A stretch of 64,000 nt of DNA from Schmidtea polychroa (taxonomy: Eukaryota), in the NCBI GenBank assembly GCA_044892525.1, contig CM097885.1, forward strand, positions 11,348,001 through 11,412,000, given 5' to 3'. Below are positions 1,947-64,000 of the stretch, piece after piece; the stretch's first letter is position 1, and each line of letters starts with the position of its first letter. The notes beneath the pieces are model-generated. The model was given only the letters and a program-made list of their open reading frames with translations. It was not told the origin of the DNA and ran no database searches. Position numbers and translations under genes: made by a program.

Positions 1947-2020
1947 ATAAACAATACTATGTCAAATGGCATGGTTATCAAAACCCGTCATGGATATCAG
2001 CAAAAGACCTAGTAAAGTGA
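1947..2020 (+). pseudogene. C-terminal chromodomain remnant of the Polinton integrase
   Basis: KQYYVKWHGYQNPSWISAKDLVK* fits the chromodomain pattern Y-VKW-GY...SW. It sits immediately upstream of the penton gene, the usual Polinton position. Confidence 0.75.
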
Positions 2021-3033: not shown

Positions 3034-3388
3034 TTCTGATATTATTAGTATGTATAGTGGTAGCCAATCTGGTGGCGAATTACCATATTTTATTGGTAAA
3101 CAGTACGGATCGGGATGGTTGAGAACAATTGGTAGATTTGCATTGCCTATTCTTAAACGTATTGGTAGTTTTGGTATGAAAACTGCAAAAGACGTTATTA
3201 TGAATGAACAGAAAATATTACCATCTCTAAAAACCAATGCTTTAGCTGAATTAGGGAAAGTTTTACCAGGGGTTCCAGGTATGTTTCAAAAAGAAAAATC
3301 TCCAGCTCCAGCTCCAAAACGTAAAAGACATGGAATATCACGTATAAACAAACGAATGAAAGGACATGGAACTATATTTGCAAAATGA
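3026..3388 (+). CDS. Polinton core protein (PW-like, basic)
   Basis: QSGG and QYGSG adenain-type sites, amphipathic WLRTIGRFALPILKRIG, basic C-terminus; located between penton and MCP. Confidence 0.8.
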   Translation: MASSDIISMYSGSQSGGELPYFIGKQYGSGWLRTIGRFALPILKRIGSFGMKTAKDVIMNEQKILPSLKTNALAELGKVLPGVPGMFQKEKSPAPAPKRKRHGISRINKRMKGHGTIFAK

Positions 3389-4608
3389 TTTGTGGTAAAT
3401 CTGAATTATGTATATTTGATAGACCGTCGCCCCAGGCTGTAATAGAATTTGGGGCATTTGAGGAAGTTTTTCCTATGAATTCAATTACCGATAGTAGAAA
3501 TGATATAGAGTTTTATATTAATGGTTCGCAAACTGAATATTTAGATTTGAACGATACTTTATTGACTGTTCAGATCAAGGTTGTAGATAAAGATAGAAAA
3601 GTTTTGGATGCCAATGCAGATGTAATACCGAACAATTTCATGTTTCATACTCTGTTTAAAGATGCAGTGGTGGGATTTAATAATATCAAGATTGAGGGTG
3701 GAAATAATACATTCATTCACAAGGCATTAATAGAAACTATTTTAAATTACAATTCCGATACTAAAAATACATGCCTTACTCCTATGGGTTATGCAGCAGC
3801 AGATGATGAAAGAAAAAAGTGGGTTAAAGGCTCAAAATCATTCACTATGTGCTCATCATTACAACTCGATTTTATGGATCAACCGAAATATTTGCTACCG
3901 GGAGTTAATGTACATATTAGATTGAAAAGGTCTGATTCTGCATTATCTCTTACTAGTGCAACTGGTGCACCAATATGTCAATTAGTTGATGCAAAATTAT
4001 TGGTGAGAAGAGTACGACTAGACCCCTCAGTATTAGCAGGTCATCAATTGGGTCTTAATTCAAAACATGCAATTTATCCATTAAAAACAAAGGAAATTGT
4101 ACAATTTGCTATTGCTAAAGGTGCTTCATTTTTCTATAAAGAACAAATATTTGGTGACCGAAGAATGCCTAATTTTATTCTGATAACATTTCAAAGTGAA
4201 GCACAATATAATGGATCATATACTGCGTCCAGCTCAATTTTCAAAAACTTTGGTGTTACATCATTGACTTTGTCGAAAAATACTGATTATAGAGAAACAT
4301 ATATTCAAGATTTCGAGAATGACAATTACTCTGCGACATATATGCAGAGTATTGTTAGAAATCTGGGTTATTTAGATAAAAATTTGAATTGCGGAATAAC
4401 TCTAGAAGATTTTAAAAGGAAATACCCATTTTTTACATTTGTTTTAGCCCCTGATTTTGATTTAAATCAAAGTCAATTACCTCAAAATGGAAATTTACGA
4501 CTGGATATAAAGTTTGCAAAAGCTATTACTGAACCAGTACATGTTATAATATATGGAGTATTTGAAAATGAAGTTCAAATTACTGCAAATAGAACAGTGT
4601 TGGTATAA
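3385..4608 (+). CDS. Polinton double jelly-roll major capsid protein
   Basis: Intact 407 aa ORF with the CGKSELCIFDRP start, YLDLNDTLL, QPKYLLPGVNVHIRLKRS and GNLRLDIKFAKA motifs. Confidence 0.9.
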   Translation: MICGKSELCIFDRPSPQAVIEFGAFEEVFPMNSITDSRNDIEFYINGSQTEYLDLNDTLLTVQIKVVDKDRKVLDANADVIPNNFMFHTLFKDAVVGFNNIKIEGGNNTFIHKALIETILNYNSDTKNTCLTPMGYAAADDERKKWVKGSKSFTMCSSLQLDFMDQPKYLLPGVNVHIRLKRSDSALSLTSATGAPICQLVDAKLLVRRVRLDPSVLAGHQLGLNSKHAIYPLKTKEIVQFAIAKGASFFYKEQIFGDRRMPNFILITFQSEAQYNGSYTASSSIFKNFGVTSLTLSKNTDYRETYIQDFENDNYSATYMQSIVRNLGYLDKNLNCGITLEDFKRKYPFFTFVLAPDFDLNQSQLPQNGNLRLDIKFAKAITEPVHVIIYGVFENEVQITANRTVLV

Positions 4609-5017
4609 ATGTATACAGAAACACCAAAAAGTTGTCATGGAGTAAGTTGTTTTTTATACTCTGGATTTATTTAAGTAGTTCTGTTCAGGTCAATAAAATC
4701 GGAAAACAGATATTGGGAAATGAATTTGTTGGAGTTTTTCCTCTTGATAAAATTCCATATTTGAGCAATAATCAAGCAATAATCGTCAATACTCAATCGT
4801 CTCATCTTGGTGGAGAACATTGGATAGCTATATATATGAAACCTGGTAATATATTCGTGTTCGATCCTATGGGTTTTTATTACCCGGCTTTGTTGATATC
4901 AAAACTACAATGGGAAAACCTATTGTGTATAATAAAACTATGTTTCAAAATCCTTTGACTCAAACATGTGGTCAACATTATTTAGCTTGGTTATTGTACA
5001 AAAAATTTGATGTTTAA
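4609..5017 (+). pseudogene. Adenain-like cysteine (maturation) protease; probable intron 4642-4688; frameshift near 4908
   Basis: FVGVFPLD, GEHWIAIY (catalytic His), VFDPMG, and in the shifted frame QNPLTQTCGQH (catalytic Cys). The ATG at 4609 abuts the MCP stop and joins in frame through a GTAAGT...TTCAG intron. Confidence 0.85.
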
Positions 5018-5045
5018 TAAATGTATCCTTTCCTTTGTTGTTGTG

Positions 5046-5126
<81 letters not shown>

Positions 5127-5501
5127 ATTATTTTGAAAAATATTATTATTTTGAAAAATATTATTATTTTTAATTAATTTTATTATTATTTACATAAATA
5201 TTATTAATTCTACATAAAGACCACCTTTGCCTGAAGCATGCACAGTGCAAGTTAACAAAGGCAGGACTAACAAAGACAGTCACATGTAATTTCTGAGTGA
5301 TTTACATTACATACATGCATGCGTGTGATTGGTTGAGTGAGTAAAATATTCAGTGTCTATGTGTGTGTGCCTAAACTCTCATTGGCTGGGACAGGAAAAT
5401 ATTCATTCTCTTTATAAACATTGACAAATCTCAAATTTGTCACAATTATTTTAAAATTTTTCAACAACAAACCATTTAAAATTTTTCAACAACAAACCAA
5501 A

Positions 5502-5996
5502 ATGTCAAACAACAATATTTTTCGAGGACTTTTGTCAACTGGTAAATTATTATTTTTATTATTATTCTATTTTTATTTATTTTTTATTTAGATTCTTTTG
5601 ACTGGTTAGAAGTAACCGAGGATGAGACGTTATTGAATGTGGATCGAATTTTTGGTAAATTTATTATTCTAATTTTTATGAAATTAATTTTGTTTTTTAG
5701 AACCGATTACAATTAGTGACGACGATGATGTCGTGTTTATTGGGCAAACTGATGCCCCTAATGTAAGAGAAAATGATGCTGAAAGTAAATTTATTTTATT
5801 TTTTGTATATTATTTTTAAAAAATCATTTAGAGTTTAATGTAGACTTGGATAATGGTGGAAATGCCCTCAGTTTAGAGGAGGTAGCAGAAATTGCCCTCA
5901 ATTTGGAGGTGGTAGCAGAAAATACCCTCAATTCGGAGGTGGTAGCAGAAAATGATAATGGCCTCTCTGAGGATGATTCCGATGAGGAACCTCAAT
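5502..5996 (+). CDS. Four small exons of a spliced acidic Polinton protein, possibly the 5' end of pPolB
   Basis: Exons 5502-5541, 5592-5654, 5701-5784 and 5832-5996 are separated by 50, 46 and 47 nt GT-AG introns, all phase 1, with an open frame throughout. TATAAA at about 5413 and ATTGG (CCAAT) boxes lie upstream. Confidence 0.7.
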
Positions 5997-6351
5997 GTAA
6001 GAATTGATTTATTATTTATATGTATATATATATATTTTTTTAAAAATTAAACAATTTTCGTAATCACTTTTTAAACATTTGCATACAAATTTTTGTAATG
6101 TTATTAAATGTTAATTAATTATGATGATAAGAAGAATATGATGAAAAATGATGATATGAAGAAAAATGAAGATATGAGGAATAAGATGATATGAAGAAAA
6201 TGATGAAAATGACGAAAATTATGAAATTATTATTAAGAAAATACTACGTTTCTGAAAAATAATGAAATTATTATACAATGTTAAAAAGTGATTACGAAAC
6301 TATAGTTATAAATATTCCTTGTAGTTTGCAATGTGCATCTACAATAGTTAA

Positions 6352-6433
<82 letters not shown>

Positions 6434-6466
6434 CAGCTACATATATCTCTAATAGTAATAATAATG

Positions 6467-6527
<61 letters not shown>

Positions 6528-6589
6528 TATTAATAATATTTTACATCATTTAATGTAGTCTGCAGTGCGCATGCAGCTACATATATCTC

Positions 6590-6630
<41 letters not shown>

Positions 6631-6764
6631 TTTGTTAATGATGAGATTCGTGTGGATCCTGATGACAGAACTTTTGAAAGAATTTTGTTAGAAATTTTAT
6701 ATTTTTATTGTGTAATAGTGTTGCAGTGGGCACGCAACATTATTTATCTGTTGATAGGATTTTT

Positions 6765-6852
<88 letters not shown>

Positions 6853-6944
6853 TTTTACATCATTTAATGTAGTCTGCAGTGAGCATGCAGCTACATATAT
6901 CTCTAATAATAATAATAATGATGATGATGATAATAATAATAATA
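6352..6944. repeat. (AAT)n microsatellite tracts with a repeated spacer
   Basis: Direct observation; atgcagctacatatatctct recurs three times. Confidence 0.95.
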
Positions 6945-7109
6945 ACCTTTTATTCTACATTATCTTATAATAATATACCAAATTTATTAATTGTTAATAA
7001 TTAATCCGTTTTATAATTATTATATAATAAAAACGGATTAACTACTAACAATTGGTAATAAATATTTAGAAAAATATTCAAATAATATTTAAGGATTTAT
7101 CATTATTAG

Positions 7110-8706
7110 GTAAATTATATCCACGATACTGCCAGGCTTCTGGACATTCAAAATCTTGTCATAAGACAATGAAAAAATATTATGGCCATAAATTCTATGG
7201 ACTCATATACTATTTATGTCCATCATGCCAGACTTCCCAACATATAAAATATACTGATTTTTAGAAAACCCATAGTAACCATCTTAATCAGTTTTTTATA
7301 AAGAAACTTACTCTCTTTAAACGGATAAATAAAAATGCAAATAAAAATGTAAATAATGATGCGATTAGCGCAGAACATAAAAATTTAAATAAAACTGTAA
7401 ATAAAAATGTAAATAAAACTGTAAATAAAACTGTAAATAATGATGCGATTAGCGCAGAACATAAAAATGTAAATAAAACTGTAAATAAAACTTTAAATAA
7501 TGATGCGATTAGCGCAGAACATAAAACTGTAAATAAAACTGTAAATAATGATGCGATTAGCGCAGAACATAAAACTGTAAATAAAACTGTAAATAATGAT
7601 GCGATTAGCGCAGAACATATAATTAAAACTGTAAATAATGATGCGATTAGCGCAGAACATATAATTAAAAATGTAAATAATAATCTAAATAAAAATGTAA
7701 ATAAAAATGTCAATAATAAACGGCCTGCTGTTATTCAAGACTCTTGTATACCATCTAAAGTTATTAAAGTTAATGGTGGTAATGAAATAAATATCCAAAT
7801 TAATAAGCAAATAGGTGGGTCAATACATGGTTCAGTCGATATAGATGACGAACCAGAAATAGAAATAGATTTTAAGGGGGCTAGAAAAAATCTAAGGTTT
7901 GACGTTGAGAAAAACGACTTAGTTCAAATATCGTTAACATCGAAAATTATAGAAAAGTTAATAGCCGAAATAAAAGGAATGGGGCCGGTTAAAATACAGT
8001 TCACTGTTCTCATACAATTTGAGAAAGATGGCGAAATCCGAGATAATTTTTTCTCCAATAACGCCGAAGTTTTTTCCGATAATTTTCTATTAGAGGGCAT
8101 CACTAAGTTAAATAATAAAATTGAAAAATTCACCTATTTAGGAAGCGGATGGCGGGTTGTTAGGATAAAAGAAATAGATTTTATAATAAATAAATATAAA
8201 TGTATAAATAGATTAGCTGGACATAGTTACATCCCCACCCCAGCGGCTTTAAATTCTAAAAAAGCAATTGTAAATATACAGAACACAGATGATATGTGTT
8301 TCATCTATAGTATTCTAGCCCTCTTAAAGCGTGATATTATACACCGCAATAGGCACCGTGTTACTGCTTATGAGAGTTATTTAAACGAGATCAATTTCGA
8401 CCCTATTAGTGATTGCCCGATGAAATTATGTGACATACCCAAATTTGAACGCAAAAACAGTGAACTGAACTTGGCTATTAACGTTTTAACTTATAGGAAT
8501 AAACCAGCTAAGCCTATTGAACATCAAGATATAGATTATATTCCCCATCACCCACATCTAGATATTATTCACCGCTCTAAGGTTATAGGTGGTGAACCCA
8601 TATATTTATTATTATTAGAAGACGGTAGTAATTTTCATTACACCGCAGTTTTTGATCTGCAAAAACTTATGAATTGTCATCCTAATAATTCCTGTGATAT
8701 ACAAAT
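7110..8706 (+). pseudogene. N-terminal region of Polinton protein-primed DNA polymerase B, truncated
   Basis: Frame open from 7265 through N/K-rich repeats, QIGG, GSGWRVVRI, SYIPTP..L.SKKAIVNIQNTDDMCFIYSILA, PMKLCDIPKFE and LLLLED..HY. A Cys/His-rich exon from 7110 is offset by a frameshift at about 7260. No polymerase core follows. Confidence 0.8.
7326..7712 (+). repeat. Coding tandem repeat (NKTV / NNDAISAEH units)
   Basis: Repeated aataatgatgcgattagcgcagaacat and aataaaactgta units, in frame with pPolB. Confidence 0.9.
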
Positions 8707-8972
8707 TTGGAAAAGTACTACCGACGTGATTGAAAGTCGGAGGAAAGTTATTGAAAGTCAGTGGAAAAAATTTTATAGAAAAAATAGTACCGACGTGATC
8801 GCAAGTCGGCGGAGAATTATTGAAAGCTCGTGAAAAAGAAATTATTAAAAAAAAAATTAGTACCGACGTGAGAGAGAGTCGGCTGAGAATCATTGAAAGT
8901 ATTGAAAATTTGTGAAAATAGTGCTAACGAGATTATTAAAGGCTATTATTGGGAGATTTAAAAGAACTCAAA

Positions 8973-11567
8973 GTGAACCGATACAACCTCAGAAGTCAGA
9001 AACAAGTCCAAATGGCAAATGATAATGCTGTTATGCCTCTCAATAGAGAGATGATTGATTTCGCAAGTTGCCAGAAATTACCCGTCAATCAATATGGAGG
9101 AGACCCTGTCGAATTTGCAGATTTCATGGGAGATTATTATATGTACGCCTCAGCATACGGATGGACACAAGCCATTATGGTTCAGAGATTCCCACTCTAT
9201 CTGAAGGGTGCGGCAAGAGAAGCCTGGCAGCAAGTCGACAAACGAAATGTTGGTAATGATTGGACCAAATTGAAGGATGCAATGGCACTGAAACTGGTTG
9301 GTGGAGATATCAAAAGAATCATGCGACAGAAATTTTATAATCGAGTTCAAGGTCCAGATGAATCGGTCAGTGAGTTTGCTTATCATCTAACCACTTTAGC
9401 AGATAAAGCCTTTGAAGTTAAACCAGACCAAGCAGATATGGCCAAGCAGGTTAAAGAGCTATTAGAAGATCAGTTTATAACCGGAGTCCACTCCGAAATT
9501 AAAAAAGCCCTATGTTATGTGGATTTTTCCAATTTCGATGAGCTCGTGAAGAAAGCCATGAAGATAGAGCTGAATTTGAAAAGTGCAAAAAGATCAGATG
9601 CTTTTGGAGTTAATGTGGAGAGACGTGAGCGGTCAATTACGCCTGTGAGAGCACCATGGGATGAAAAGAAAATAAATCAAATCAGTAGTCCAATTTTGAG
9701 ACCCAATAATAGATTCCAAGCCAGTAGATCAGCCATGAATGTACAATCAAATGGACAGGTAAATAATCCTCAATGCGAACATTGCAAAAAGTCTGGACAC
9801 TATTCAAATCAATGTTGGTTCAAATATGGGAAAAATCCCAGCCCTAACAAGAGATTCACAGAAAACAAACGGATCAGCTGTGATGTCGAATGCTATTGAT
9901 GCGGAAAGAAAGGGCATATTAGCAGAAACTGTTTTACCAGATCAAGATCATCGTCAACGTCACCTTCACCACAAAGGGACAAAGTGAATACAAATGGACA
10001 GATACAATGTCATTCGTGCAAGGGATACGGCCACATGGCGCGATCATGCCCAAGGAACTCAGAAAGATTCAGCAGACCTATTTTAAAGAAATCGATCAGA
10101 TTCCAAGAAGATATGCCAAACACCAGTAACATGACATATGCTCAGAGAGAGGAATTTCAAGACAAAATGGAAAAGGAATTTCGAGAAATGCGACAGAAGC
10201 TGAACAAATTAGTGGTGAAATTTGAATCAGATGAGGAAACTGAATCTCATATGATAATTGGAACCGTGTCAGAAGGTGAGGGAAAACCTGCCACGAAAGT
10301 GCGAAAGATCGCATCAGATGAGAATCCAACTGCACTGTTAGCCCGAGTTGAAAAATGGCTTGAGAAAATGGAAACTGACAACTCCCAGTTGAAACGATGG
10401 ATCGCAGAACTCAGCGTGATGACACTAACCCAAAGCGAACTAAAGAGAGCCATAAATTTCTGTGCAAAGTTATTCAAAGGAAACAGAGACGATGAGATAC
10501 TTAAACAAATGCAAAAGTTTGGCAAGGCTTTACGGTCAACAAGGGATTTAGCTGATATCATAGTGGAAACGACGGGACTTGATAATGTGAAGTGCCAATT
10601 CCGTGTAAATGCCTACGGACAAATCAGAGAGCTAAAGAAGCGAATACTGCGTCAATACAGTGGATGGCAAGTGCAACTAAAATTTGAGAATCGATGTCTG
10701 GAAGACGAGGAGTACTTGGTAGATTGCGGTCTGATACCAGGCTGGAAAAATAAAGTAAATGTTGTTAATGCTGTTAATACTTTGAATTCAGACAGACAAA
10801 ATTGGGAAAAGATTCTAGCAGATTTACAAGATACCCTGTATGCAGGGAATAGAGATAAAATTAATGCGAGTATCGACTTCATAATGAGCATCGAAATGGA
10901 TCGAGAAATGAAAGAAGGGTTGTTTGAATGCATCGTACCGTATACGAATAAACCGACGAGTTATCAGGCAAAGCTAAAAGAGGTAATTCGAAAACTAGGA
11001 CATGATTATGAGGCGGCAGACGATAGTGCGAAGTCTTTGATAATAGCGTTAAATATTGCGGATCAAAGGATTGAATATCATCAGGAACATTGGAGTGTAA
11101 AAGCAAAGAAAATACGACAAAAAGCAGCGGAGATATTAGGTCATGAAGGAATTATCGTGTTGATGTTCAAAGGACGAGAATTGGATGATGACGAATATTT
11201 ATTAAACTACGGATGTAACCCAAATTGTATTAATAATGTGTACGCAACAAAACAAAGTGATGAAATGGAAAGAGATGCAGTAATAGTACCGTTTTGGCCT
11301 CTGTATGAGGAAATGGATAATGATAATGTAGAGATTAAAACTGAAGTTGTAGATGACCCAGGAGAAATTGATCAAGAAATTAATGAATTGCAGAGATTAG
11401 AAACAATGGAAAATGAGGAGATGGGATCGGAAAATGAAGTTACAAGGGATATCGAGGAATTGAGCACCGATAATAGGGTAATACCGAGCATAGATGAGAT
11501 GAAAAGTGAAGAGAACTTCGTTGAAACGAAAAATGACATCGCGATATTTCGGAAAAAAACAGAATGA
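8973..11567 (+). pseudogene. gag: Gag (capsid plus 3 CCHC knuckles) followed by two ubiquitin-like domains; in-frame TGA at 9897
   Basis: Retrotransposon capsid motifs (LYLKGAAREAW, RVQGPDESVSEFAYHL, EDQFITGV). Knuckles CEHCKKSGHYSNQC, CY*CGKKGHISRNC and CHSCKGYGHMARSC. ORFs 8949 and 9984 are in the same frame. Ubl-like QLKFENRCLEDEEYLVDCG and LMFKGRELDDDEYLLNYG. Confidence 0.88.
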
Positions 11568-12102
11568 TGCGGAAATTGAATCTTTGAGTTTAGATGAATC
11601 AAGCAGGACTGAGCGAATATTAAAAAGTTTAGTTACGAAATTGTACTTGTTAGATGAAACTGAAACAGAAGAAGATGATACTTCGGAGGGGGAGAAAAGA
11701 GTTGTAAAAAGATTGGCAACGGAATTAAAGAGGAGATTACCGTCGATAATTAAAAGGAATTATGAAGAAAAGGAATTTTGTGAGGAAGCAGTAATTGAGG
11801 ACCTAACACGAACCGAGTTGGATCGAGATGTAATATTGACAGTGCTAGCCTATATAATATTGGAGATTGGTATTTATGGTTGTCTGGAAAGTGACAATTC
11901 AAAATCATTGATAAAGAAAGCTAGTGAAATGACGAATAAATATTTGACTAAATGGATCGCAAACAATGGCGGATGGGAAAAGTTAATACAAAAGGCTGAG
12001 AGCCCAAAAACAGAGACAGTGAGGAAAAAGGGAAAACTTGCATTTCCATGGTTGATGATTTCTATTATTATGTTATTGGGAATAATAAACACGACGAATT
12101 CA
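11560..12102 (+). CDS. Bcl-2-like domain within the retroelement polyprotein, ending in a hydrophobic anchor/signal peptide
   Basis: BH2-like LTKWIANNGGWEKL (WIANNGGW at 11953-11976), degenerate BH1-like ELDRDVILTVLAY and BH3-position helix VVKRLATELKRR, then RKKGK and a hydrophobic stretch. Confidence 0.65.
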
Positions 12103-13885
12103 TTGGTGGCATACGACTGCTCCCAAACCGAAATGGGAAGAGTATATTCGTTGGTAAACGTAGCAGAGTGTTCGGATGCATATCCAGTAAAATTTAAAGT
12201 GACAAATCCAGTAAAATATTATGTATATCAAGAATCGGGGTTTCGACGAGCAAAGGTGAGGGAGTGTACAGTGAAACGAACTACTTTTGTATTTTATTGT
12301 GGAAAATGGAGCCACTCATCGATGGTGAAAATGCAATCGATACCGAGAACGATAGAAATAATTCCAGAGAATTGTTTGGCAGCCTTTCAAACAGGACAGT
12401 TGAAAATAAATGCAGATATCAAACTACAAGCAAAGCTTAACCACAAAATCCGTGAGACTGTAACCGTGCGAGGGATAATAGAGTCGAATGGTGATTGCCA
12501 AGGAGAGCCATACAAAATAGACGATGCTATAATTGACAAAGCCGTGGTTGTGGAAGAGTACATGTCAGAATTAAGAGAATTTGATGGATCATTTGATGAT
12601 GATACTGGTAAACTACAAACACATCCATTCTGCAACATGAAACAATCTAGCTGTCAGACAGGCGAATCAATCTTGGTGTACGATGTCGATACCAAAAAGT
12701 GCAATTTAGTGCAATTGAAGTCAATGAGTTTTAAAGAAATAACGGGAGAACAGATCAGGGAAAAGCCTGAGAAAATAAGAATGGATCCAGCAACGAGCAC
12801 AACAACAAGAATCACACCTCTACGGATGAAAGATACTCCAACAGTGTTAATGTCAACCTCGGAGGAAGATGGGATGCGCTTCCTGAGAAAAGAAACTAAA
12901 ACAAAGTGTGGACAAAATGTCTATGAGACAAATTATAAAGGTATATATGTATCTCAGAAAATGATTACAGAGGCCCAAACAAACATACATGCCGGAGATA
13001 TCAAGTTGACAAATTACTTTAATAACAAAATAGACTATTTATTTCACTTTGGTCAAAATACTGTTGAAAATGTGTACCGAGAAGTTATTATAAATGATTG
13101 CAATCTCAATAAAGAAATACTCCGAAATCGGATGGCAATGGCTATAACCAATCCTAATTTGGTAACACCAATGTTAATTGCAGAAAATGGAGTGTTCGCC
13201 AGAATTTTCGGTGAAGCACTATATAGCTATAAATGTAAAGCGGTACCAGTGAAACTGACAAAGTATGACCAATGCACCAACGAGTTACCAGTGAATTTAA
13301 ATGGAAAGTTGCGATTTATGGAGCCTGTAACACGAATATTACTGGAAGAGGACGTGAAACCGAAAGTATTACAGTGCAATAGATTGTTGGCACCATTATA
13401 CAGACTAACACCAGAATCTTGGATTGCATTACCAGATCATCGAGAAGTAAAGACACCGGAAAACTTAGAATTGACAGAATTACAATATCTGGTAAATTTT
13501 ACGTCGTTAGAAAAATTGTCGCAAAGTGGAATTTACTCGAGCGAAGACATTGAGGAAGCTCACAGAAACTTGTTATTTCCATCAAAGAAGGAAAGAGTAA
13601 TAATGGAAATGGTAGATACAATTCTCCCAAGCGGAAGTGGGAAGGTAAATTATGAGTATTTGTTAACTCCAGATCATTACAAGAAAGCGACGTATAATAC
13701 AATCTAGGGAAAGTTTATGTTCATTGGACAAGCGTGTGCCGGATTGATTGGAATTTATGTAATATGTGTTGTAATCAAAGTAATAATATCGCAGGTCCTA
13801 TCAACACACAGATTATACGCGATCACAGGTTGGTCGTGGAAACTAGTAATTGGGTGCATACCATTATTGGCTAGATTCTTCATTA
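12103..13885 (+). CDS. env: Envelope glycoprotein, chuvirus-like (probable class III fusogen); TAG at 13705
   Basis: Signal peptide then LVAYDC, a Cys-rich ectodomain, YFNNKIDY, DCNLNKEIL, GEALYSYKC and CTNELPV...FMEPVTRIL, then C-terminal FIGQACAGLIGIYVICVVIKVII TM region. This pattern matches chuvirus-type G proteins as I recall them. Confidence 0.8.
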
Positions 13886-14289
13886 CTCATCATCAATATC
13901 AGGAGTTGGAGATACTCAAGGCTCGAATATTAAAGAAGAAAAAGGTGAGCTACGCTAGTACTACCCCTTCAAGGGACGAGAATAATGACAATGACAACGA
14001 GGGTGATAGTGCACCGTTATATGTTGACAATCAAGAACTAAGTGGAATGAATAAAGAAGCGTTAAGAACTTATCAAATCTTAAAAGAACCACTGTTAAAT
14101 GCGAGTAGCGTAGACACATTTACAAAATTGTGTATACCAAAATCATTTATGCAACCAGCACCAGTGTATCCAGTTGATCGATTACGAGAGATGAAACCAG
14201 TGGAAAATATCGCATTACAATGTGAAGGAAAGGTGGGAGAGAGAATCGAGCCTTCTAGCGCAGAGATCGAGAGAAAAAATATGTTAGGC

Positions 14290-17200
14290 TTACCATGCAA
14301 CTACTCATTGATGACATTAACAAAAAGAGGAAAGCAACCCCGAATATTTACACAAATGAACAAACATAAAGTGGAAGCTTTAGTCGATTCGGGATCTAGT
14401 CACACAATAATATCGGAAAATGTATTAAACGCGAAGGAGAAAATGCGAATAAAGCCTACCGACGAAATAGTGAGGTCATTATCAAAAAATGAATTCAACA
14501 TAATTGGACAACTTAACGTCATATTCTATATTGGAGATCGAATAATAGCGCACGATGCGCTCATAATGAAGGGAAGTCCAGTACGATGTCTGATCGGCAT
14601 GGATATATTAGAGCAGCTGGACGGAGTCTCACTTAATTTAAAGACAGGTAATTTGATAGCAGGAGAAACAGGAGAAATAATTCACAGGGCAGGTGAAGTG
14701 TTTGTGAATCAGACATTGACAATACCACCAGAATCGGAGATGGTATATTGTGCAAATACCATGAGTGTGGATAATGGTGATTTTATATTCGAACCAAATC
14801 AAACGCTAGTCGAAAAATATGATTTACCGATATGTGACGAAGTTGTCAAAGTGGAAAATCAGATAGTACCAGTCCATATAACGAATAGCAGTAAGAAACC
14901 GGTTCAGCTACACCCAAAAACAAAATTGGGAAAATTATCAAAAATGTCTATTGAAACAAATTGCAAAATACCAAGAAACGTCAAAGTGTATAAGGAGCCT
15001 GAAGTGGTAAGCAATGATTTAAATGAGAGGCAGAAAAAGGAATTTACAAAACTGTTGAGAAAATACCAAGATATCTTTGCTAAACACGAATATGATTTAG
15101 GTTTAACCAATGTAATTGAGCATGAAATACCGTTATTAGACGAAACTCCAATAAAAATAAAGCCATACAGAATCCCCTACGTTCATCAAGATGAAAGTGA
15201 TAGACAGATTACAGCAATGAAGGAATTTGGAATAATTCGAGATAGCGCGTCACCATTCTCCTCATCAATAGTGATAGTTAAGAAAAAAGATGGAGACTTA
15301 CGATTTTGCGTAGATTATCGGAAGCTAAATCAAGTTACGAGGAAAGACACTTATCCAATTCCGGTACCCCAAGAAATGTTTGATCAAATGGGAGAGGCAC
15401 GATATTTCACAGTTATTGATTTAAACAAAGGGTACAATCAATTTAGAGTAAAAGAGGAAGATAGAGGAAAGACGGCGTTCTCGGATGGCAAAGGACTGTA
15501 TGAGTTCAATGTGTTACCATTTGGATTAACAGGAGCCCCAGCTACATTCCAACGAGGAATGAATTATGTGTTACGAGGAATTCGACATGCATTGGTATAT
15601 ATCGACGATATAATAATATTTTCAAATGATTTTGAAGAACATCTGAAAGATGTAGAAACTGTATTTAAACGGCTCAAAAGTGCAAAATTAAAAATCAAAC
15701 CATCGAAATGTGAATGGGGCAAAGCAGAAGTGATTTATGTCGGACATATAATATCACGGCGAGGGTTACAAACTAATCCAGATAACATCAAAAAAGTGGA
15801 AGAGTACCCAGTACCAAAAGATGCCGATGAGGTTAGACAATTTTTAGGTTTGGCTAGCTATTACCGAAAATTTATAAAAGATTTCTCTCATATCGCACAA
15901 CCATTGAATACGTTACTAAAGAAAAACAATAAATTTATTTAGGGACAAATGCAACAAAACGCTTTCAATACATTAAAAGAGAAATTAGTAACAACTCCTA
16001 TATTAAAATGTCCAGATTTTACAAAACAATTTATCTTGATGACGGATGCAAGCAACGTTGCATTGGGTGCGGTATTGGGACAAAAATTTGAAGGTGAAAA
16101 GGACCATGTAATAGCATACGCAAGCAGATCATTGAGGACTCACGAGAAAAACTACTCAACGATTGAAAAGGAAACGTTAGCGTTAGTGTATGGAATTACT
16201 ACTTTTAGACAATATTTATTGGGCAGAAAATTTACTGTTTATACAGATCATAATCCATTACAGTGGTTAATGAAACACAGAGATTCAGCCAGTAAGTTAA
16301 TACGATGGTCAATTGCCCTCCAAGAATACGACTTTGAGATTAAATACCGGACAGGTAAAGCTAACGCGAATGCAGATGCAATGTCGAGAATCCCAGAAAA
16401 TAATAGTGAAGGGACACCTGAAAAAGTGGAAGGCACTATATTCGCTGCAATCAAAGCTGTTAATGATATGTCTGAACTTCAAAATGATCAGGAAAACGAT
16501 AGTGAATTAAAACAATTTATCGAACAAGCGGTCAAAATAAGAAAAGAACAAGACTGGAAACGACTTACAGATGCAAACAGCAAATATGTAATTCATAATG
16601 GAATACTTAAATGTTGGAAAAATGGGGAAGCATTAATTATTATACCAGCCAAGCACAGAGATGCATTACTGATGCAGTATCATGATGGAGCGTTGGGAGG
16701 TCATTTGTCAACGCGCAAGACGCTATCAAGATTAAAATTGAAATACTTTTGGCCAACAATGGAACAAGACGTGAAAAATTGGTGTAACAGTTGCAAAGTA
16801 TGCATCACCCGCAGAAATACTGGTAAAAAGATTAAAGTACCATTAAAACCGATGCCAGTACCTGCAGCACCAATGGAGATGACGGCAATGGATATTCTAG
16901 GACCATTACCGGAAACAACAAAAGGAAACAAATACATTGTTGTTTTTTGTGACTACTTTACCAAATGGCCAGAAGCATACGCTATTCCAAACAAAAAAGC
17001 AGATACGATTGCTAGAATATTTGTGGAAAACATAATATTTCGCTATGGTACTCCAAAGAAATTGTTAACTGATCAAGGAAAGAACTTTCAAAGCGAGATG
17101 TTTAAATCAATCACAGACTTATTTGGAATTTGGAAATTGAATACGTCACCATATCATCCACAAACTGATGGATTGGTGGAACGATTTATTGGGACACTGA

Positions 17201-17745
17201 TAAATATGATCTCATCATATGTGAATCGAAAACAGAAAAATTGGGACGACTTCATAAAGCCGTGTCTATTTGCCTACAGAAATGCAGTAAATCAAAGTAC
17301 AGGAGAGACCCCTTTTTACTTGATGTATTTAAGGAAAAATAATATGCCGATTGATCTCAAATTCCAACCACCAATTTCACAATATATGGAGATACCCGAT
17401 TATAAAGCATTGATGCAAGAAAGAATGCAGTCAGTATGGACTAAAGCCGGTTTGACAATAAAGCACAACCAAGAGAAATATAAAGAATCATACGATAAAA
17501 AAGCACATGCGCATGGCATAAAGATTGGAGATCTAGTATATCTGAACAGACCGGAACCTCTCAAAGGTTTATCGCCTAAATTGCAAAGACCATTTAAAGG
17601 ACCCTACAAAGTGTGCGACACCACCGAAACCAATTTGAAGTTATTACCATTCAGGAGTAAAAAAGCTAACCCGATGATTGTGTATGCAAATCGATGTAAA
17701 CTAGTGCCAGAGGAAGATGAATCTAGATATCCCTTAAGATCCAAG
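14290..17745 (+). pseudogene. pol: Pol: aspartic protease, RT, RNase H, integrase with GPY/F; TAG at 15940
   Basis: ALVDSGS (DSG at 14386), RFCVDYRKLN, LPFGLTGAPATFQR, YIDD (15598), TDAS, H-H-C-C zinc finger, MDILGP, TDQG, DGLVER and GPYKV. Same frame as env upstream. Confidence 0.97.
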
Positions 17746-17811
17746 CAGAATAAAGTAACGGGTCAAACAAAATTGAAACAGAAATTCACTAAAAATCCAA
17801 CACCAGTCAGC

Positions 17812-18945
17812 TACATCAATAAGATATTATATGTAGCAATAATGCTGATGTTAGTAACAGTCGCGAGCGGCAAAAAGATTGACTTGCCATATGCGGTAAA
17901 CAAAATCCAGGTAATGGAGAAAATACATATATATTCCACCCTAACAAATGTAGTATGGAGCTGTAAATGCGAGATCGCAGACCAAATAGAAATTATTAAT
18001 TTACTAGACAATACGGCACCAGAAGTAGAACTGAATTATGATAAAGATACATTTGCAGTACAAAATTTAAAGCCAAATTTGAAATACCAATGGCTGTTGA
18101 GACAGAACATGTCAAAGTGGTACACGCAAATTCCGATAGAAGTGCACACAAAAGAGATGCGAAACTTGATCGAGATAGAACCAGAGATAAACAGAATCAA
18201 TATATATTGGAAGCCAGTGGACTTGGTGAAAGTGCGAATCACATTTCAAGGGTTAAATGTCAACACCCTTAACTCGCGAAAATCATTTATCCGCTACGAG
18301 AAATTGAAAATGAATCAAAATTATTCAGTTAATGCAAACTACTACGAGAACATATGCCTCAAAAATGGAACGGTAGTGAGAAACCAATGGTCACGATTTA
18401 AGAGTGAGACCCAGTCTATCTATCTCGGAGACGAGTCAAATCGTATAACCCTGAGTGTTGGAAATGGACCGGTAACAATATATAGAAAATCAGGAAATGA
18501 TGAAAGAGTTGTTATTATCTACAAACAAAAAACCCTGACTATATTAGATGCCGGTAATCATTTTTTTACACTTTACACTTCTGATTTAGAGACGGCATGG
18601 GAATTAACAGTTAAATATCAGCGATGGATAACCGAACCAGGCAGATGGCAAACAGTTTTCGTGGAAGTCAAGACAATCAATGAATCGAAACGAAAATCAA
18701 ATACAACTACATCACCTTTCCAATTACCGGCCCAAGAGACGACAAAACCTAACTCAAATAAACTAATGATGATAAATTCGGACTTGACAGTCAACTATTG
18801 TGAATATCTCATTTACATTTTAATAACAGGTTTTCTCATCTTATCAATAACATTCATAATCATCACCATCTCGATATGTGTAAAAGAGAGACAACTAACT
18901 ATCCTTCAACCACCATCATATTCATATTATGAGACAAGACTATAA
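17812..18945 (+). CDS. Second type I membrane protein fused in frame after integrase
   Basis: Internal signal-like KILYVAIMLMLVTVASG, about 300 aa beta-rich ectodomain with N-X-S/T sites, S/T/P stalk, TM YLIYILITGFLILSITFIIITISICV and tail PPSY. Confidence 0.7.
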   Translation, partial: YINKILYVAIMLMLVTVASGKKIDLPYAVNKIQVMEKIHIYSTLTNVVWSCKCEIADQIEIINLLDNTAPEVELNYDKDTFAVQNLKPNLKYQWLLRQNMSKWYTQIPIEVHTKEMRNLIEIEPEINRINIYWKPVDLVKVRITFQGLNVNTLNSRKSFIRYEKLKMNQNYSVNANYYENICLKNGTVVRNQWSRFKSETQSIYLGDESNRITLSVGNGPVTIYRKSGNDERVVIIYKQKTLTILDAGNHFFTLYTSDLETAWELTVKYQRWITEPGRWQTVFVEVKTINESKRKSNTTTSPFQLPAQETTKPNSNKLMMINSDLTVNYCEYLIYILITGFLILSITFIIITISICVKERQLTILQPPSYSYYETRL

Positions 18946-56995: not shown

Positions 56996-58154
56996 TGGTC
57001 TTTATTGATATATCAAAATACTGTTATTTATAAATTAACTAAAAAATACTATATTATTTTACTGAATGATAACTTAAATGTTTTTAATATACCTATTTCT
57101 AAAGTAAATCGACAGCTCAGACCAACAACATGTATGGATGACCACCCATTGTTAATTTATTTCCAGTGTCACGTCCCTCAAAAATACCGTGAGTGTTTTA
57201 ACAAAACTGAGCTAAAAGAAACTTTCCAGATAACAACTCACCTGAATGTTTTGAACAAAAATGATCGAAATTGAGAACAAACGATTAGATGGCGATTAAC
57301 TTCTGGCCACAACCCTAACAACATGAAAATTAAGATTTAATTATTGAATTCGTTGTTTTCTGCCTGGAAATACTAACAGAATATTTTTTAATTCAAAGAA
57401 TCTTCATTATAAATTTTTGAATTTAAAAAATTAAATGAAGGATATATAAGTGTACATAAAATTATAATATTATATAAAATTATACTGTATTTATTAATAA
57501 ATTTAGAATACATAAAATTATAATATTATAATATTATATAAAATTATAATATTATATAAAATTATACTATATAATAATAGTAATGTTTAAATATGCTTAA
57601 ATAACTAAATTGTTTAAATATTTTTAAATAACTAAATTTAAATTATTTAAATAAACTTTTCATATAACTTTATTTCTTTCGTTTTAGTATCCATAAAGTA
57701 AGTATATAAAGAATTTACTACAATATTTTAATTATTTTACTTAGTAATGAAGAAAATGAATTATATAATTATGAAGAAGATAAACCAGAAAAAATAGTGA
57801 AACACTAAAAGACTTATGTTCTGGATTTAGAGATTTCTTATTAAAACATGAATTATTGGATTATGGGGAAGATGACCAGACAAAATGGTGAAACACTAAA
57901 GGAGTTATAGTTCCGGATTTCTTAAATGAATTAGCTGATTGTGGGTGTCCTTCAACATGAATGTTTACTTATCAGACTTAAATTATGTAAACTTTCAACG
58001 AATGTCAAAAAAAATGGGAAAAATCGATGTTTTAGCAATTAAGTAAAGTACTCGTCAGTAGATGGATTGGGCACCGCTAGCACAGTACCCCCCCCTCCCC
58101 TCCCCCCGTCGGTAAGATTTTCAAAAATATTCTAAGTCTAAAAGTACATTTTTT

Positions 58155-58636
58155 TTCAAGGTCAAATTTAAACAAAGACATATGACTCATCAAGGTCAAA
58201 TTTAAACAAAGACAATGACTCATATTATGACTCATCAAATTGTTCAAGGGCATTTAAACAAAGACCATGACTCATCATATGACTCATCAAGGTCATTTTC
58301 AAGGTCATATGACTCATATGGCCTTGAAAATTTTTTTCAAGGTCATATGACCCATAATATGAATCATCAAGGTCATTGAAACAAAGACCATGACTCATAG
58401 TATGACTCATCAAGGTCATTTTCAAGGTTATATGACTCATAGTATGACTCATATGACCTTGGGAAAAATTTTCAAGGTCATATGACTCATAATATGACTC
58501 CTCAAGGTCATATGACTCGTCCGATGACTCATCAAAATTTTCAAGGTCATTTTCAAGGTCATTTTCAAGGTCACATGACTCACCCAAGGTCATTCCCAAG
58601 GTCATATGAGTCATCGCGATGACTCATCAAGGTCAT
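58155..58636. promoter_or_regulatory. Subterminal array of TGACTCA, TCAAGGTCA and AAACAAAG motifs
   Basis: Dozens of interleaved copies; the same array occurs at 51193-51660. Confidence 0.6.
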
Positions 58637-58793
58637 ATTATTATTTTTAAAAAATATTATTATTTTTTATTATTATTTTTAAAAATATTATTATTTTATT
58701 TTTAATTTCTTTCAAAGTTCCCGCCAACGAAAATTAATAATCGATAGCTCATTTTAAAGCTCAATCCAAGACCTTTCGAATGAGCCATATATC

Positions 58794-58986
<193 letters not shown>

Positions 58987-59110
58987 GATTAGTATTATTA
59001 GTATTAATCTATATACACCGAGTCTATCCGACAAAATATTTTGTCCCCCTATGGGTAATGCTCACAAGGGTACTGGTCACGCTCAACAAATCAACAAAAC
59101 ATACATTTAT

Positions 59111-59611
59111 TTAAACAATAAAATAATGTAAAATTAACAAAGGTAAACTAAATATTGATGTACTACTATTCGCAGCAATATTGTTAGAAATTGGTAACGT
59201 TGAATTGATTTTCAGATATTCTATTGATCCTTTGATTGTTTGAATTTCTCTTAATAATAATTCAATCTTTTTTAACAAATAATCATGCTTCTTATCAATA
59301 ATCTTCATATTCTTTTTATTTTCAGTAATAGAGTTATTGAAAACCTCAATATGATCAATCAATTTAATTTTTATATTTTGTATATATTCAAATGTTAGTT
59401 CATAACTGTTTTCTAAATTCTCCAATCTTTGAGCTATTCTTTTTCCTGGATGCTTTGACCATTTTGGTTTATCGAGAATATATAAAATATCCATCAACTT
59501 GGCTGTATTCGGACAAACACATATTGATTTATTAAAAGACTCCACTGTTATTGTTGTATTGTGTGAGCACACACTCGTTATAATAATTAGCAATATGAAT
59601 AGAGTTTTCAT
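59111..59611 (-). CDS. Secreted or GPI-anchored coiled-coil glycoprotein
   Basis: Signal peptide MKTLFILLIIITSVCS, CVC, several N-X-S/T sites, heptad region and C-terminal NSS plus a hydrophobic tail with no cytosolic residues. Confidence 0.7.
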   Translation of the reverse strand: MKTLFILLIIITSVCSHNTTITVESFNKSICVCPNTAKLMDILYILDKPKWSKHPGKRIAQRLENLENSYELTFEYIQNIKIKLIDHIEVFNNSITENKKNMKIIDKKHDYLLKKIELLLREIQTIKGSIEYLKINSTLPISNNIAANSSTSIFSLPLLILHYFIV

Positions 59612-59716: not shown

Positions 59717-60231
59717 ATGTCTAATTTAATGGAAAATATGTTAAGAGAACTCATCAACAAGAATATTATGGAAAGCCTAATTTTCCTGGTCGATCGGACC
59801 GAAAAGATTATAGAAGGTAATCACATTGATTATGAGGACGTCCTCAATTCCGATTCCCTCGAAACAAAGAAATTCTATTTTAATAGAATATTTAATTGCT
59901 TATGCGACGAGGAGATGAAGTGGACCCGAATATTAGTAGGGTTCGCTTATATGAAGATAATAATTGAAAAAAGCCTATGGGATTCCGAGCACTATTATCA
60001 GTGGTCTCAAGAAGTAATACTTTTATAATCTATATTTTATTAATATATATTTTCTAGATAATCAAGTCAAAGTTTCAGCCATGGATTGAAGCCAATGGCG
60101 GATGGGGCGTGCTGAATCGACTCGCCAGAAATGCAAAAGAATTAGATCAGCAAAAAATCCAATTTAAAAACTATTTAAAACTTGCAACAGGTGTTGCTAT
60201 TTTATATGTTTTATGTCGTTTTTTTAAATAA
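59717..60231 (+). CDS. Bcl-2 family protein (156 aa, 2 exons; intron 60014-60057)
   Basis: BH1-like DEEMKWTRILVGFAY. After a 44 nt phase-0 intron come BH2 FQPWIEANGGWGVL and tail anchor LATGVAILYVLCRFFK*. Confidence 0.85.
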
Positions 60232-60811: not shown

Positions 60812-61054
60812 TTAAAATATTTGTGAAAGTCTAGCAGACATAATTTTCCAAATAGGAGAATATACATCATTATTATCAACTTTATATCCCTGGATTGCAA
60901 TTGTAATATACCAATTTTCATTTTCTTTGAAAGCGATTTCATCAAAGGAATCATAAAATCTTGCATATCTATTATTGAACCATGCATGTTGATTACATGA
61001 TAGATTCGAATCTATCCGTTTAAAAACATCGTCAATAGTTTTGACATCAATCAT
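60812..61054 (-). CDS. Hypothetical 80 aa Polinton protein (a ~57 aa ORF from 61223 overlaps its start)
   Basis: Compact ORFs between TATA/CCAAT-like motifs and AATAAA-like signals. Confidence 0.5.
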   Translation of the reverse strand: MIDVKTIDDVFKRIDSNLSCNQHAWFNNRYARFYDSFDEIAFKENENWYITIAIQGYKVDNNDVYSPIWKIMSARLSQIF

Positions 61055-61520
61055 TGAAAGCGTGCCGGATAAGAATTTTAAATTTAGTTGGAATTAGCTT
61101 GACTGGTGCAACCAATTTCATATTGATTTCTTCTTTCAAAAAATACATTTTGTAGTTGTGGAACATTTGAACTGGTTGTACCATTTCTTTAGGTTTTTCG
61201 GTGCTTGAAATTTTCTTGGTCATCGTGAATAATGAATAAATTTAAATGTTACAGGGTTTTTATACCTTTGACTCATGCCTATCAACCAATCAGATTATAG
61301 CATGTCTTTGTTTAAATTGCATTCAAAATGCATTGATGTTGCATTGATGTTGCATTGTCACATGTTCTATTTACAGATTTATTATTAATGTTTAAATTAT
61401 TACATGTTTTGATATATGTACAGATTTATTATTAATATGTTTCATTATTATTAATGTTTTTACTATTATTACTATTCATATTTCTATTACTATTATTATT
61501 TCTATTATTATTACTATTAC

Positions 61521-62098: not shown

Positions 62099-62536
62099 TT
62101 AGAAATCGACCAATGAAATTATCTCATTTCGAACATTGTCAACAAATTCTCTATACTCCAAATTTCTCAACCCCAGCATGACAACCTTTCCACTAGCAAA
62201 CACGTTGACACATATAGGGTTATATTTTAATAGTCTTAGTGCCGGAAACAATTCCGGTTCAAACATACAATCACATTTTTTCGACATGTTATATAGATTG
62301 ATACTATGTCCCATATCCATAGTAACGGTAATTGATTGGATTTTAATATTATTTATTCGATATTGTAATTTATTAATATCCAAAGGTTTCTTACATCCCA
62401 TGATTCTGCATTTACCAGTCTTGAAAAATATTATCGGATATTTCCCGCTTCTATCGATAATTTGCTGTGGTTTCCCTGGTGGGAACCTCATATTCGATAC
62501 ATCAAAATTTCCTCGATAATTTATATTTGCTAACAT
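62099..62536 (-). CDS. TATA-binding-protein-like protein
   Basis: Two TBP-like repeats: IIFFKTGKCRIMG and IKIQSITVTMDMGHSINL...FEPELFPAL...VNVFASGKVVMLG. Confidence 0.85.
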   Translation of the reverse strand: MLANINYRGNFDVSNMRFPPGKPQQIIDRSGKYPIIFFKTGKCRIMGCKKPLDINKLQYRINNIKIQSITVTMDMGHSINLYNMSKKCDCMFEPELFPALRLLKYNPICVNVFASGKVVMLGLRNLEYREFVDNVRNEIISLVDF

Positions 62537-62635
62537 TATTAAATCATTTATGAAAATTAGTCTTTATATACAAATTGAGCACGAGTTCATTAAATCATCG
62601 AATATAAACAAATACACATTTATAAAATCTTTGAA

Positions 62636-63262
62636 ATGGAATTAAGAAATGATGCAGTATACCAAATCGTTGGTCCGAGTGGTAGTGGAAAAACATTATT
62701 TGTTTGTAAATTACTAAAATCCAATTTATTCAAATCAAAATTCAACAGGATTTATTGGCATAGGGGTGCTGATGAAGAACATGGATTAACTCAATCAAGT
62801 TTCTGTAAATTAAAAAACATGAAAATAGTAAAGGGATTCGATAAAAACTGGTCCAGCCGATTAAAGAAAGGCGATGTCATTATTATCGATGATTTGTATC
62901 AAGAAGCTAATAAAGAAAAAGATTTTAATAATTTATTTACAAAGATCAGCAGACATGTCGGTGTAACAGTTATTTTCATAACACAAAATCTATTTCATCA
63001 AGGTGGGGCACATCGAACACGTAATTTAAATGTACAGTATTTAGTTATTTTCAAGAATCCTAGAGATGCAACAGTGATTGATTTTCTTGCACGTCAAGCA
63101 TACCCTAACAATCGTAATTTTCTTATCAGTGCATTTCAAGATGCTACAAAAATACCTCATGGATATATATTTCTTGATTTCACACAACAATGTCCCGATG
63201 ATTTACGTGTAAAAACAGATATTTTCAACCCAAAAGGTGCCATGGTTTATAAACAAAGTTGA
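62636..63262 (+). CDS. A32/FtsK-like DNA packaging ATPase
   Basis: Walker A GPSGSGKT, Walker B IIIDD, SRH, ITQNLF and YLVIFKNPRD. Confidence 0.95.
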   Translation: MELRNDAVYQIVGPSGSGKTLFVCKLLKSNLFKSKFNRIYWHRGADEEHGLTQSSFCKLKNMKIVKGFDKNWSSRLKKGDVIIIDDLYQEANKEKDFNNLFTKISRHVGVTVIFITQNLFHQGGAHRTRNLNVQYLVIFKNPRDATVIDFLARQAYPNNRNFLISAFQDATKIPHGYIFLDFTQQCPDDLRVKTDIFNPKGAMVYKQS

Positions 63263-63414
63263 AAACCTCTATGAATAATAATGTTTCTAAAAGCAAGGGT
63301 GAAAAATATTAGGAAATTAAGAAAGGTATTAGAAAGACTATTAAAGTTCCAAAGGTTCCACCAACAACTAGTTATACACCATCTAAAAAACTTGTAACTG
63401 AAAATTTCTCTGCA

Positions 63415-63813
63415 ATGAATCTTATTTCGAAAAATCCTAAACCTAAACGTAAAACCCGTAAAACCTGTAAAACCGGTAAAAAAGTAGTTAAAAATCATCG
63501 CAGTTTTCCATTTTTTAATGCATTGTTAAAGGCTCCGAGTATGAAAAGAATGAATATATTGCAATCATTCCCAAATTTTGTTGTCGATGATTTACTCAAT
63601 ATTATACTTAAAGTAGTCAAAGGCAAAATTAAAATCAGTAAATCAAAAAAGCATTTATTGAGCAAACATAAGAAACCTTTATTATCTTTAGTAAATAATA
63701 AAAATCGTAAGCAAATGAGGAAAATTATATATAAACAACAAGGTGGATTTATTGGTGCATTGATACCTCTGGCATTATCATTATTAGGTGGAGTTGTAGG
63801 AAATCAATCATAA
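63415..63813 (+). CDS. Basic Polinton virion protein with a C-terminal amphipathic peptide after QQGG
   Basis: K/R-rich; QQGG|FIGALIPLALSLLGGVVG. Confidence 0.8.
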   Translation: MNLISKNPKPKRKTRKTCKTGKKVVKNHRSFPFFNALLKAPSMKRMNILQSFPNFVVDDLLNIILKVVKGKIKISKSKKHLLSKHKKPLLSLVNNKNRKQMRKIIYKQQGGFIGALIPLALSLLGGVVGNQS

Positions 63814-63816
63814 ACA

Positions 63817-64000
63817 ATGGGTGCTAATCCTTCATTGCCCGACATTAAATTTAATTTTAAATCTTCTTGTTGTAATGGAGAAGATTTGGACGAACCCAGA
63901 AGACGAAGCCGGTTTCGGTGGAGTGGCAAAATTAAACAAAAGAGTTCCGAATTCGAAAAAAGAAACCCAGAAGTGGTTATCAGATCAGCTTGCGTACAGT
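63817..64000 (+). CDS. Partial ORF with an N-myristoylation-like start
   Basis: MGANPS...SSCC; open to the window end. Confidence 0.5.
   Translation, partial: MGANPSLPDIKFNFKSSCCNGEDLDEPRRRSRFRWSGKIKQKSSEFEKRNPEVVIRSACVQ

Follow-up and report, generated by a model that had tools for sequence, protein, structure and literature searches.

A compact TBP-family gene in a Schmidtea polychroa Polinton and a variant TATA-like box upstream of morphogenesis genes: a candidate late-transcription switch

EBV BcRF1 and HCMV UL87 are herpesviral TBP mimics, and the TBPs of Nucleocytoviricota mostly come together with a viral polymerase. For Polintons, the timing of capsid genes and a helper-free virus cycle are, to our knowledge, open questions. 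ORF24 of KSHV, a further herpesviral mimic, is a multi-domain protein of 752 aa, which is part of a six-protein complex and binds Pol II itself (PMC12529657). Most Nucleocytoviricota TBPs pair with a viral TFIIB, and their stirrup is about 40% conserved (PMC7221094). With respect to Polintons, the available text of Starrett et al. 2021 (PMC8502044) contains TBP only as a figure-legend abbreviation, without analysis, and the accessible part of its supplement holds no TBP match. Moreover, the word 'promoter' is absent from the accessible portions of the Polinton papers PMC11161782, 10.1101/2023.08.22.554363, PMC11296320, 10.64898/2026.10.13.758929 and 10.64898/2026.06.19.733378, and no published study of a Polinton TBP or promoter class was found in the literature as far as accessible (including 10.1101/697771 and PMC4402545), with Repbase, bioRxiv supplements and subscription journals lying outside the search.

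The window, that is, the whole stretch of 64,000 nucleotides that was analysed, contains an intact reading frame of 145 aa with the motifs FEPELFPAL and VFASGKVVMLG, as originally described (Table 1). Its assignment holds against the Pfam TBP profile (PF00352; E 1.6e-15, 57.1 bits versus a cut-off of 22.9), and every one of its 35 PDB sequence matches is a TBP or a TBP fusion. The AlphaFold2 model (pLDDT 96, from an input alignment of 85 sequences) is a two-lobed saddle, all 145 residues of which superpose on residues 66-240 of yeast TBP (Z 13.2, rmsd 2.4), while the best non-TBP structure reaches Z 6.3. Helices of at least four residues are absent from residues 1-80 of the model. The first repeat, which had been described as shortened, is indeed so, yet both lobes fold in the model; because the match to TBP extends along all 145 residues, this repeat is a folded lobe minus two helices and not a remnant. 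Both profile and fold make the product a TBP-family member, though it is neither a canonical TBP nor an ORF24 homolog. An Atlas search with the same query returned generic TBP clusters, and the structural matches of the model in BFVD included Nucleocytoviricota TBP-like proteins.

The gene resides in a Polinton that spans about 19 kb and has terminal inverted repeats (six other copies compared). Small genes occupy the left arm, namely those for the TBP, a likely single-stranded DNA-binding protein (SSB) and a predicted membrane protein, and are followed by a co-directional block with the ATPase, a 177-aa basic protein, the integrase, a 355-aa and a 123-aa gene, a 406-aa putative capsid gene, a protease-like frame, pPolB and a RING protein. 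The Polinton/Maverick hallmarks are thus present (terminal inverted repeats, pPolB, integrase, ATPase and protease), while Pfam gives no capsid match for the conserved 406-aa gene, which is labelled 'MCP' by size, position and conservation. The copy in the window is damaged outside the TBP-ATPase pair. Contigs from four sequencing runs presumed to be RNA cover parts of the region, give neither start, strand nor level, and play no part in the argument. No TFIIB or RNA polymerase gene was recognised among the element ORFs scanned, several small ones of which were unmatched. Protease- and A32-family searches of the same genome returned mostly the same Polinton family.

Table 1. Features of the Polinton copy within the window, with their positions and recurrence in other copies or related loci.
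Feature	Position	Strand	Remarks
Left terminal inverted repeat region, starts AGTAG	58057..59160	+	inner end approximate
Likely T7 gp2.5/Enc34-type SSB gene	60812..61222	-	broken frame in window copy (136 aa in others)
Compact TBP-family gene, intact	62099..62536	-	145 aa; Pfam TBP, AF2 model, structure match
Canonical TATA box TATATAAAG of TBP gene	62562..62570	-	present in 30/30 TBP-selected copies
TATAAACA box before ATPase, candidate late promoter	62603..62610	+	30/30 copies; 22/23 relatives
A32-like packaging ATPase, intact	62636..63262	+	208 aa; Pox_A32 E 3.6e-7
Second TATAAACA box, within ATPase 3' end, before 177-aa gene	63248..63255	+	15/17 relatives
Basic 177-aa gene, frame broken in window copy	63281..63813	+	ORF 63415-63813 remains
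TATAAACA box before small ORF (ATG 63817) preceding integrase	63730..63737	+	small-ORF family c22 4/4
CATAAACA box, 65 nt before integrase ATG	63809..63816	+	10/13 relatives
Integrase start	63875..64000	+	~5.6 kb insertion interrupts window copy beyond window

The SSB gene sits behind a CCAAT and a canonical TATA box, and the structure match of its product is middling (Z 7.0-7.5). Being the commonest neighbour of the TBP gene, it was considered as a cofactor candidate and set aside, since it folds like an SSB; an Atlas search with this neighbour gave no usable match. In related Polintons (L037, L041, L042, L054, L057, L064), SSB-like genes show an apparent GT...AG intron before the ORF, and integrase genes of the family in the window (L122:1494-2780 and window neighbours) carry a variable (ATT)n tract, with a poly-Ile run in some copies, which is probably an intron. 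A 103-aa Polinton gene (window 59717-60028) has a weak Bcl-2 match (E 0.063), and its product may act against apoptosis jointly with that of the RING gene, which lies at the opposite end. Elsewhere in the window, positions 1966-8833 hold a fragment of a second copy of the TBP-bearing Polinton family, with 355-aa, 120-aa and 407-aa putative capsid genes and a pPolB piece, in which the box lies 19, 100 and 41 nt upstream of genes. This fragment is followed by an LTR retrotransposon (~9000-18945) with an extra 724-aa ORF (11533-13707) upstream of pol, the product of which presumably resembles a viral glycoprotein.

The TBP and ATPase genes are separated by a spacer of 99 bp, as had been claimed, and the TATA-like boxes noted on its two strands are present, though they are weak evidence by themselves because TATAWA arises on both strands in 35% of 5000 shuffles of the spacer. 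What exceeds chance is their identity: the forward-strand box is the specific conserved variant TATAAACA, while the reverse-strand box is the canonical TATATAAAG, which we infer to be a host-type early promoter. The divergent arrangement, on the other hand, proved not to be a family trait. Among 26 metagenomic loci with an ATPase, this gene is on the strand of the TBP in 24 (adjacent in 12) and on the opposite strand in 2; a divergent pair as a functional unit was therefore rejected, the orientation being specific to the lineage in the window.

Absence of the gene from other copies of the family, or its grouping as a recent host TBP pseudogene, had been named as grounds for abandoning the original prediction, and neither was found. 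The TBP gene lies 98-103 nt from the ATPase in 30 of 30 ATPase-selected loci and is intact in 24, and the 781-Mb genome yields at least 150 matches among best hits, all without an internal stop. Database homologs number 109, with 60 representatives at E < 1e-30, and of 80 metagenomic TBP loci 37 include a Polinton hallmark gene, many others being short. At least four TBP variants, about 55-60% identical, occur in the same genome beside ATPases that are 87-97% identical; dN/dS among the four is 0.14-0.33, with dS near saturation. The slot is modular: such variants replace one another next to near-identical ATPases, and the TATAAACA box is retained (loci L143-L152, L167, L170).

In a tree of 54 rows, a 100/99 branch separates 25 Polinton proteins and 15 distant relatives from the remaining rows, which are 6 paralogs of the host and 8 further TBPs; it is midpoint-rooted, and no donor is therefore claimed. 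The intact-frame copies, the 109 homologs, the dN/dS values and the separate clade together show that the gene is not a pseudogene. The single giant-virus TBP in the tree falls among cellular TBPs on a long branch, and neither this tree nor the BFVD structural search indicated a close relationship to giant-virus TBPs. Scans of viral contigs with ATPase and MCP alignments gave no matches, and the corresponding scan with TBP gave one, a canonical TBP of a giant virus. The host genome itself has about seven TBP-like loci (L159-L166), several of them highly divergent, at 31-46% identity to plant TBP.

Residues were compared between 59 non-redundant metagenomic loci and plant TBP (yeast number = plant + 41), using the DNA-contact positions of Table 1 in PMC12529657. 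N4 was assigned to N69 by structural range and repeat symmetry; MAFFT misplaced the first strand relative to cellular TBP. Kept are N69, P191, the intercalating phenylalanines F116 (58/59), F190 (57/59) and F207 (57/59), and the E186/E188/L189 stirrup, in which the equivalents of the TFIIB-binding glutamates E186 and E188 (E93 and E95) are found, at the level of sequence, in 56/59 and 57/59 loci. F99 is replaced by P in 56/59, so three of the four kinking phenylalanines remain. Further replacements are V71 to N (54/59), V122 to R (57/59), T124 to M (58/59), I194 to R (48/59), V203 to C or S (55/59) and L205 to N (57/59), with N159 to S and V161 to T fixed or nearly so across the 59 loci. The DNA-face changes are thus polar and near-invariant, altering about eight contact positions relative to cellular TBP, and most of them extend to a set of 97 more distant proteins, with greater variation there at V71, I194 and V203.

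Parallel polar changes occur in KSHV ORF24 (PMC12529657). I194, V203 and L205, all changed in the Polinton TBP, constitute the specificity positions of the altered-specificity mutant TBPm3 (PMC1636458). The N-lobe of TBP reads the 3' half of the box, in which C is disfavoured (PMC1636458), and the Polinton box departs from the TATA consensus at position 7. In addition, about 13 residues of the basic N-lobe helix H2 are missing and the helix is not predicted in the branch of the query, which deletes a surface used by TFIIA, TAF1, Mot1 and Brf1 (PMC7221094, PMC2577341). The designation 'minimal' accordingly fits this branch and fails for a second one, in which N-lobe lengths are near-normal.

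Upstream boxes were counted on the sense strand, within 100 nt of the first ATG, in 59 non-redundant of the 80 metagenomic loci, all of which had been selected by TBP. ATAAAC is the top 6-mer upstream of ATPases (23/23, background 7%), and ATAAAC[AG] precedes ATPase (22/23), MCP (10/10), p177 (15/17), integrase (10/13), p355 (9/14), p123 (5/6), PLA2 (9/11), c2 (15/21) and LRR (5/5) genes against a background of 5.3%. It is rare before TBP (4/56), SSB (1/15), c9 (0/5), c10 (0/6) and c14 (1/8), and some late-type genes are poor in it as well, namely protease (3/6), the C2H2 gene (1/9) and c37 (0/3), the latter two lying in the late block. Pooled over morphogenesis and integrase genes, the box occurs in 108/128 sense and 0/128 antisense upstream regions, the 128 genes representing eleven families picked after the counts were seen. 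The distance from box to ATG peaks at 31-38 nt, and the preceding base is T or C in 65/69 sites; conversely, 135 of 278 box occurrences are not near any catalogued start. Where the box falls inside a preceding gene, the constraint lies on the DNA, since synonymous choice favours it: ATA AAC encodes 34/57 of the Ile-Asn pairs close to a start versus 39/296 elsewhere, although P values for this codon choice are overstated because the loci are related.

Genes of the TBP class have canonical TATA boxes instead (TBP 26/56), and an Inr-like TCA[TG][TA] at +30 to +33 accompanies 19/50 early-class TATA boxes versus 4/99 late boxes. A TAAGA box was found in 0/128 sense upstream regions. Covariation between box and TBP residues is not demonstrable over the 59 loci, as both are nearly constant; C at box position 1 is found in 29/71 cases in the longer-TBP branch versus 11/57, which is one contrast only.

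A comparison is offered by Polintons devoid of TBP. Searching the same genome with the capsid family PF21738 revealed a second Polinton family (loci L191-L210; G000, e.g. C1:16275772-16286000) with a PF21738 capsid and a PLA2-integrase fusion. Ten 20-kb stretches contained no significant TBP match within this family, the three matches present there belonging to neighbouring fragments of the TBP-bearing family. The box precedes 2 of 59 hand-picked genes of the TBP-less family (background 3%) and 0 of 27 genes on six IMG/VR Polinton contigs, which are partial and give no TBP match, amounting to 2/86 comparable genes. This near-absence shows that Polinton capsid genes in this host do not generally require the box, while the link between gene and box contrasts one clade with two or three other lineages, so that shared ancestry could explain it. 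Most upstream regions printed for the TBP-less family end in (T/A)TAAAATG or a TAAATG-like context at the start codon, which we take to resemble the poxvirus intermediate/late initiator; this family may use the polymerase of a helper virus, or the context may be translational.

The observed fold, conservation and residue changes of the protein, together with the two upstream classes and the co-occurrence of box and genes, suggest that the Polinton TBP probably has an altered specificity, is made early and brings host TFIIB and Pol II to late promoters. Host TFIID would transcribe the TBP and SSB genes early from their canonical TATA boxes. The Polinton TBP would then bind (T/C)ATAAAC(A/G) as a lone TBP, without TFIID, and recruit host TFIIB and RNA polymerase II, thereby turning on the genes for morphogenesis (capsid, packaging) and the integrase in an early-to-late switch. 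Since the basic N-lobe helix is gone, the protein may moreover escape TFIIA, TAF1, Mot1 and Brf1. A broader reading, which we hold only tentatively, is that a widespread Polinton lineage possesses an orthogonal core-promoter code run by one 145-aa TFIID-free TBP, which would be linked to TFIIB and ignore Mot1 and TFIIA.

Two functions had originally been proposed, a late-gene transcription factor and a dominant-negative TBP mimic. The former now has more support than any other reading, since a class of promoters that would match it was found, with binding and timing being what we infer; the latter has lost ground, as the DNA face shows near-invariant remodelling and not decay. More generally, it is improbable that the protein is a decoy or repressor, acting through TFIIB sequestration, through blocking of TATA boxes (host shut-off or early-gene feedback) or by keeping late boxes shut until replication. 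Such a role would accord with a TFIIB stirrup retained while F99 and the co-activator surface were lost, with the lack of an identified activation domain or partner gene and with the SSB-like fold of the commonest neighbour, yet a pure decoy needs neither a near-invariant remodelled DNA face nor a matching box, and the late boxes come without alternative core elements. Unlikely, too, is a deliberately weak TATA box read by host TBP or TRF once replication makes templates abundant, with the Polinton TBP as a general booster or acting elsewhere. In a plant assay, TATAAACG did retain 27% activity with wild-type TBP (PMC10005294), a crystal structure shows wild-type TBP bound to the C(-25) variant (1qn3, Hoogsteen pairs), and the host has several divergent TBP paralogs. 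However, there are many ways to weaken a host box, and nevertheless a single variant has become fixed in elements whose TBPs share about 35-55% identity with the query; TBP-less Polintons of the same host almost lack this variant, and near-invariant DNA-face changes need a target.

The forkhead consensus is RYAAAYA, which ATAAACA fits, and the box might therefore be a host forkhead site for tissue-specific expression, unrelated to the TBP gene. We consider this very improbable in view of the strict orientation (108 versus 0), the scarcity of the classic GTAAACA (2/128), the preference for a preceding T or C and the clustered distances to the ATG. Practically negligible is the probability of a recent host TBP retrocopy or functionless passenger: the Polinton gene is intronless and intronless TBP paralogs exist in the host, but its clade is separate at 100/99, dN/dS is well below 1, and 109 homologs as well as 80 loci, 37 of them with a Polinton hallmark gene, speak against it.

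With a named factor and a named 8-bp target, the proposed switch can be tested using a single small protein and some short oligonucleotides, and the box could serve to annotate late genes, unknown ones included. If the broader reading is true, no smaller viral switch for late transcription would be known, and these elements would be expected to have a nuclear virus cycle independent of a helper. A natural shifted-specificity TBP that keeps its TFIIB contact would be an independent parallel to the herpesviral mimics, and possibly an orthogonal promoter tool.

Compared with known systems, the element resembles Polintons/Mavericks (adintoviruses, Starrett et al. 2021) in its terminal inverted repeats, pPolB, integrase, A32 ATPase, protease and putative capsid. 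Its TBP shares with cellular TBP and TRF the two-lobed saddle (Z 13.2), the EPELFP stirrup and N69/F116/F190/P191/F207, but differs in an identity of only about 22-25%, in the largely deleted N-lobe H1 and H2 and in its separate clade. As in Nucleocytoviricota TBP-like proteins, a viral TBP fold has lost the N-lobe regulatory signature (PMC7221094), whereas the Polinton stirrup is near-invariant and identity to those proteins is 9-20%. The closest parallel in design is offered by the TBP mimics of beta- and gammaherpesviruses such as KSHV ORF24: in these nuclear DNA viruses, too, a virus-encoded protein with the TBP fold has acquired polar residues on its DNA face, late genes have a variant TATA box, and host Pol II is used, as is proposed for the Polinton. 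Unlike the herpesviral TATT late promoters, the Polinton box is of the ATAAAC type. KSHV ORF24 keeps all four phenylalanines and lacks the TFIIB glutamates, while the Polinton TBP shows the reverse, with the glutamates kept and F99 lost; it is a bare 145-aa core as opposed to the four domains of ORF24, and a partner gene was not identified. By analogy, the Polinton TBP likely works like a herpesviral vTBP, but in a simpler form.
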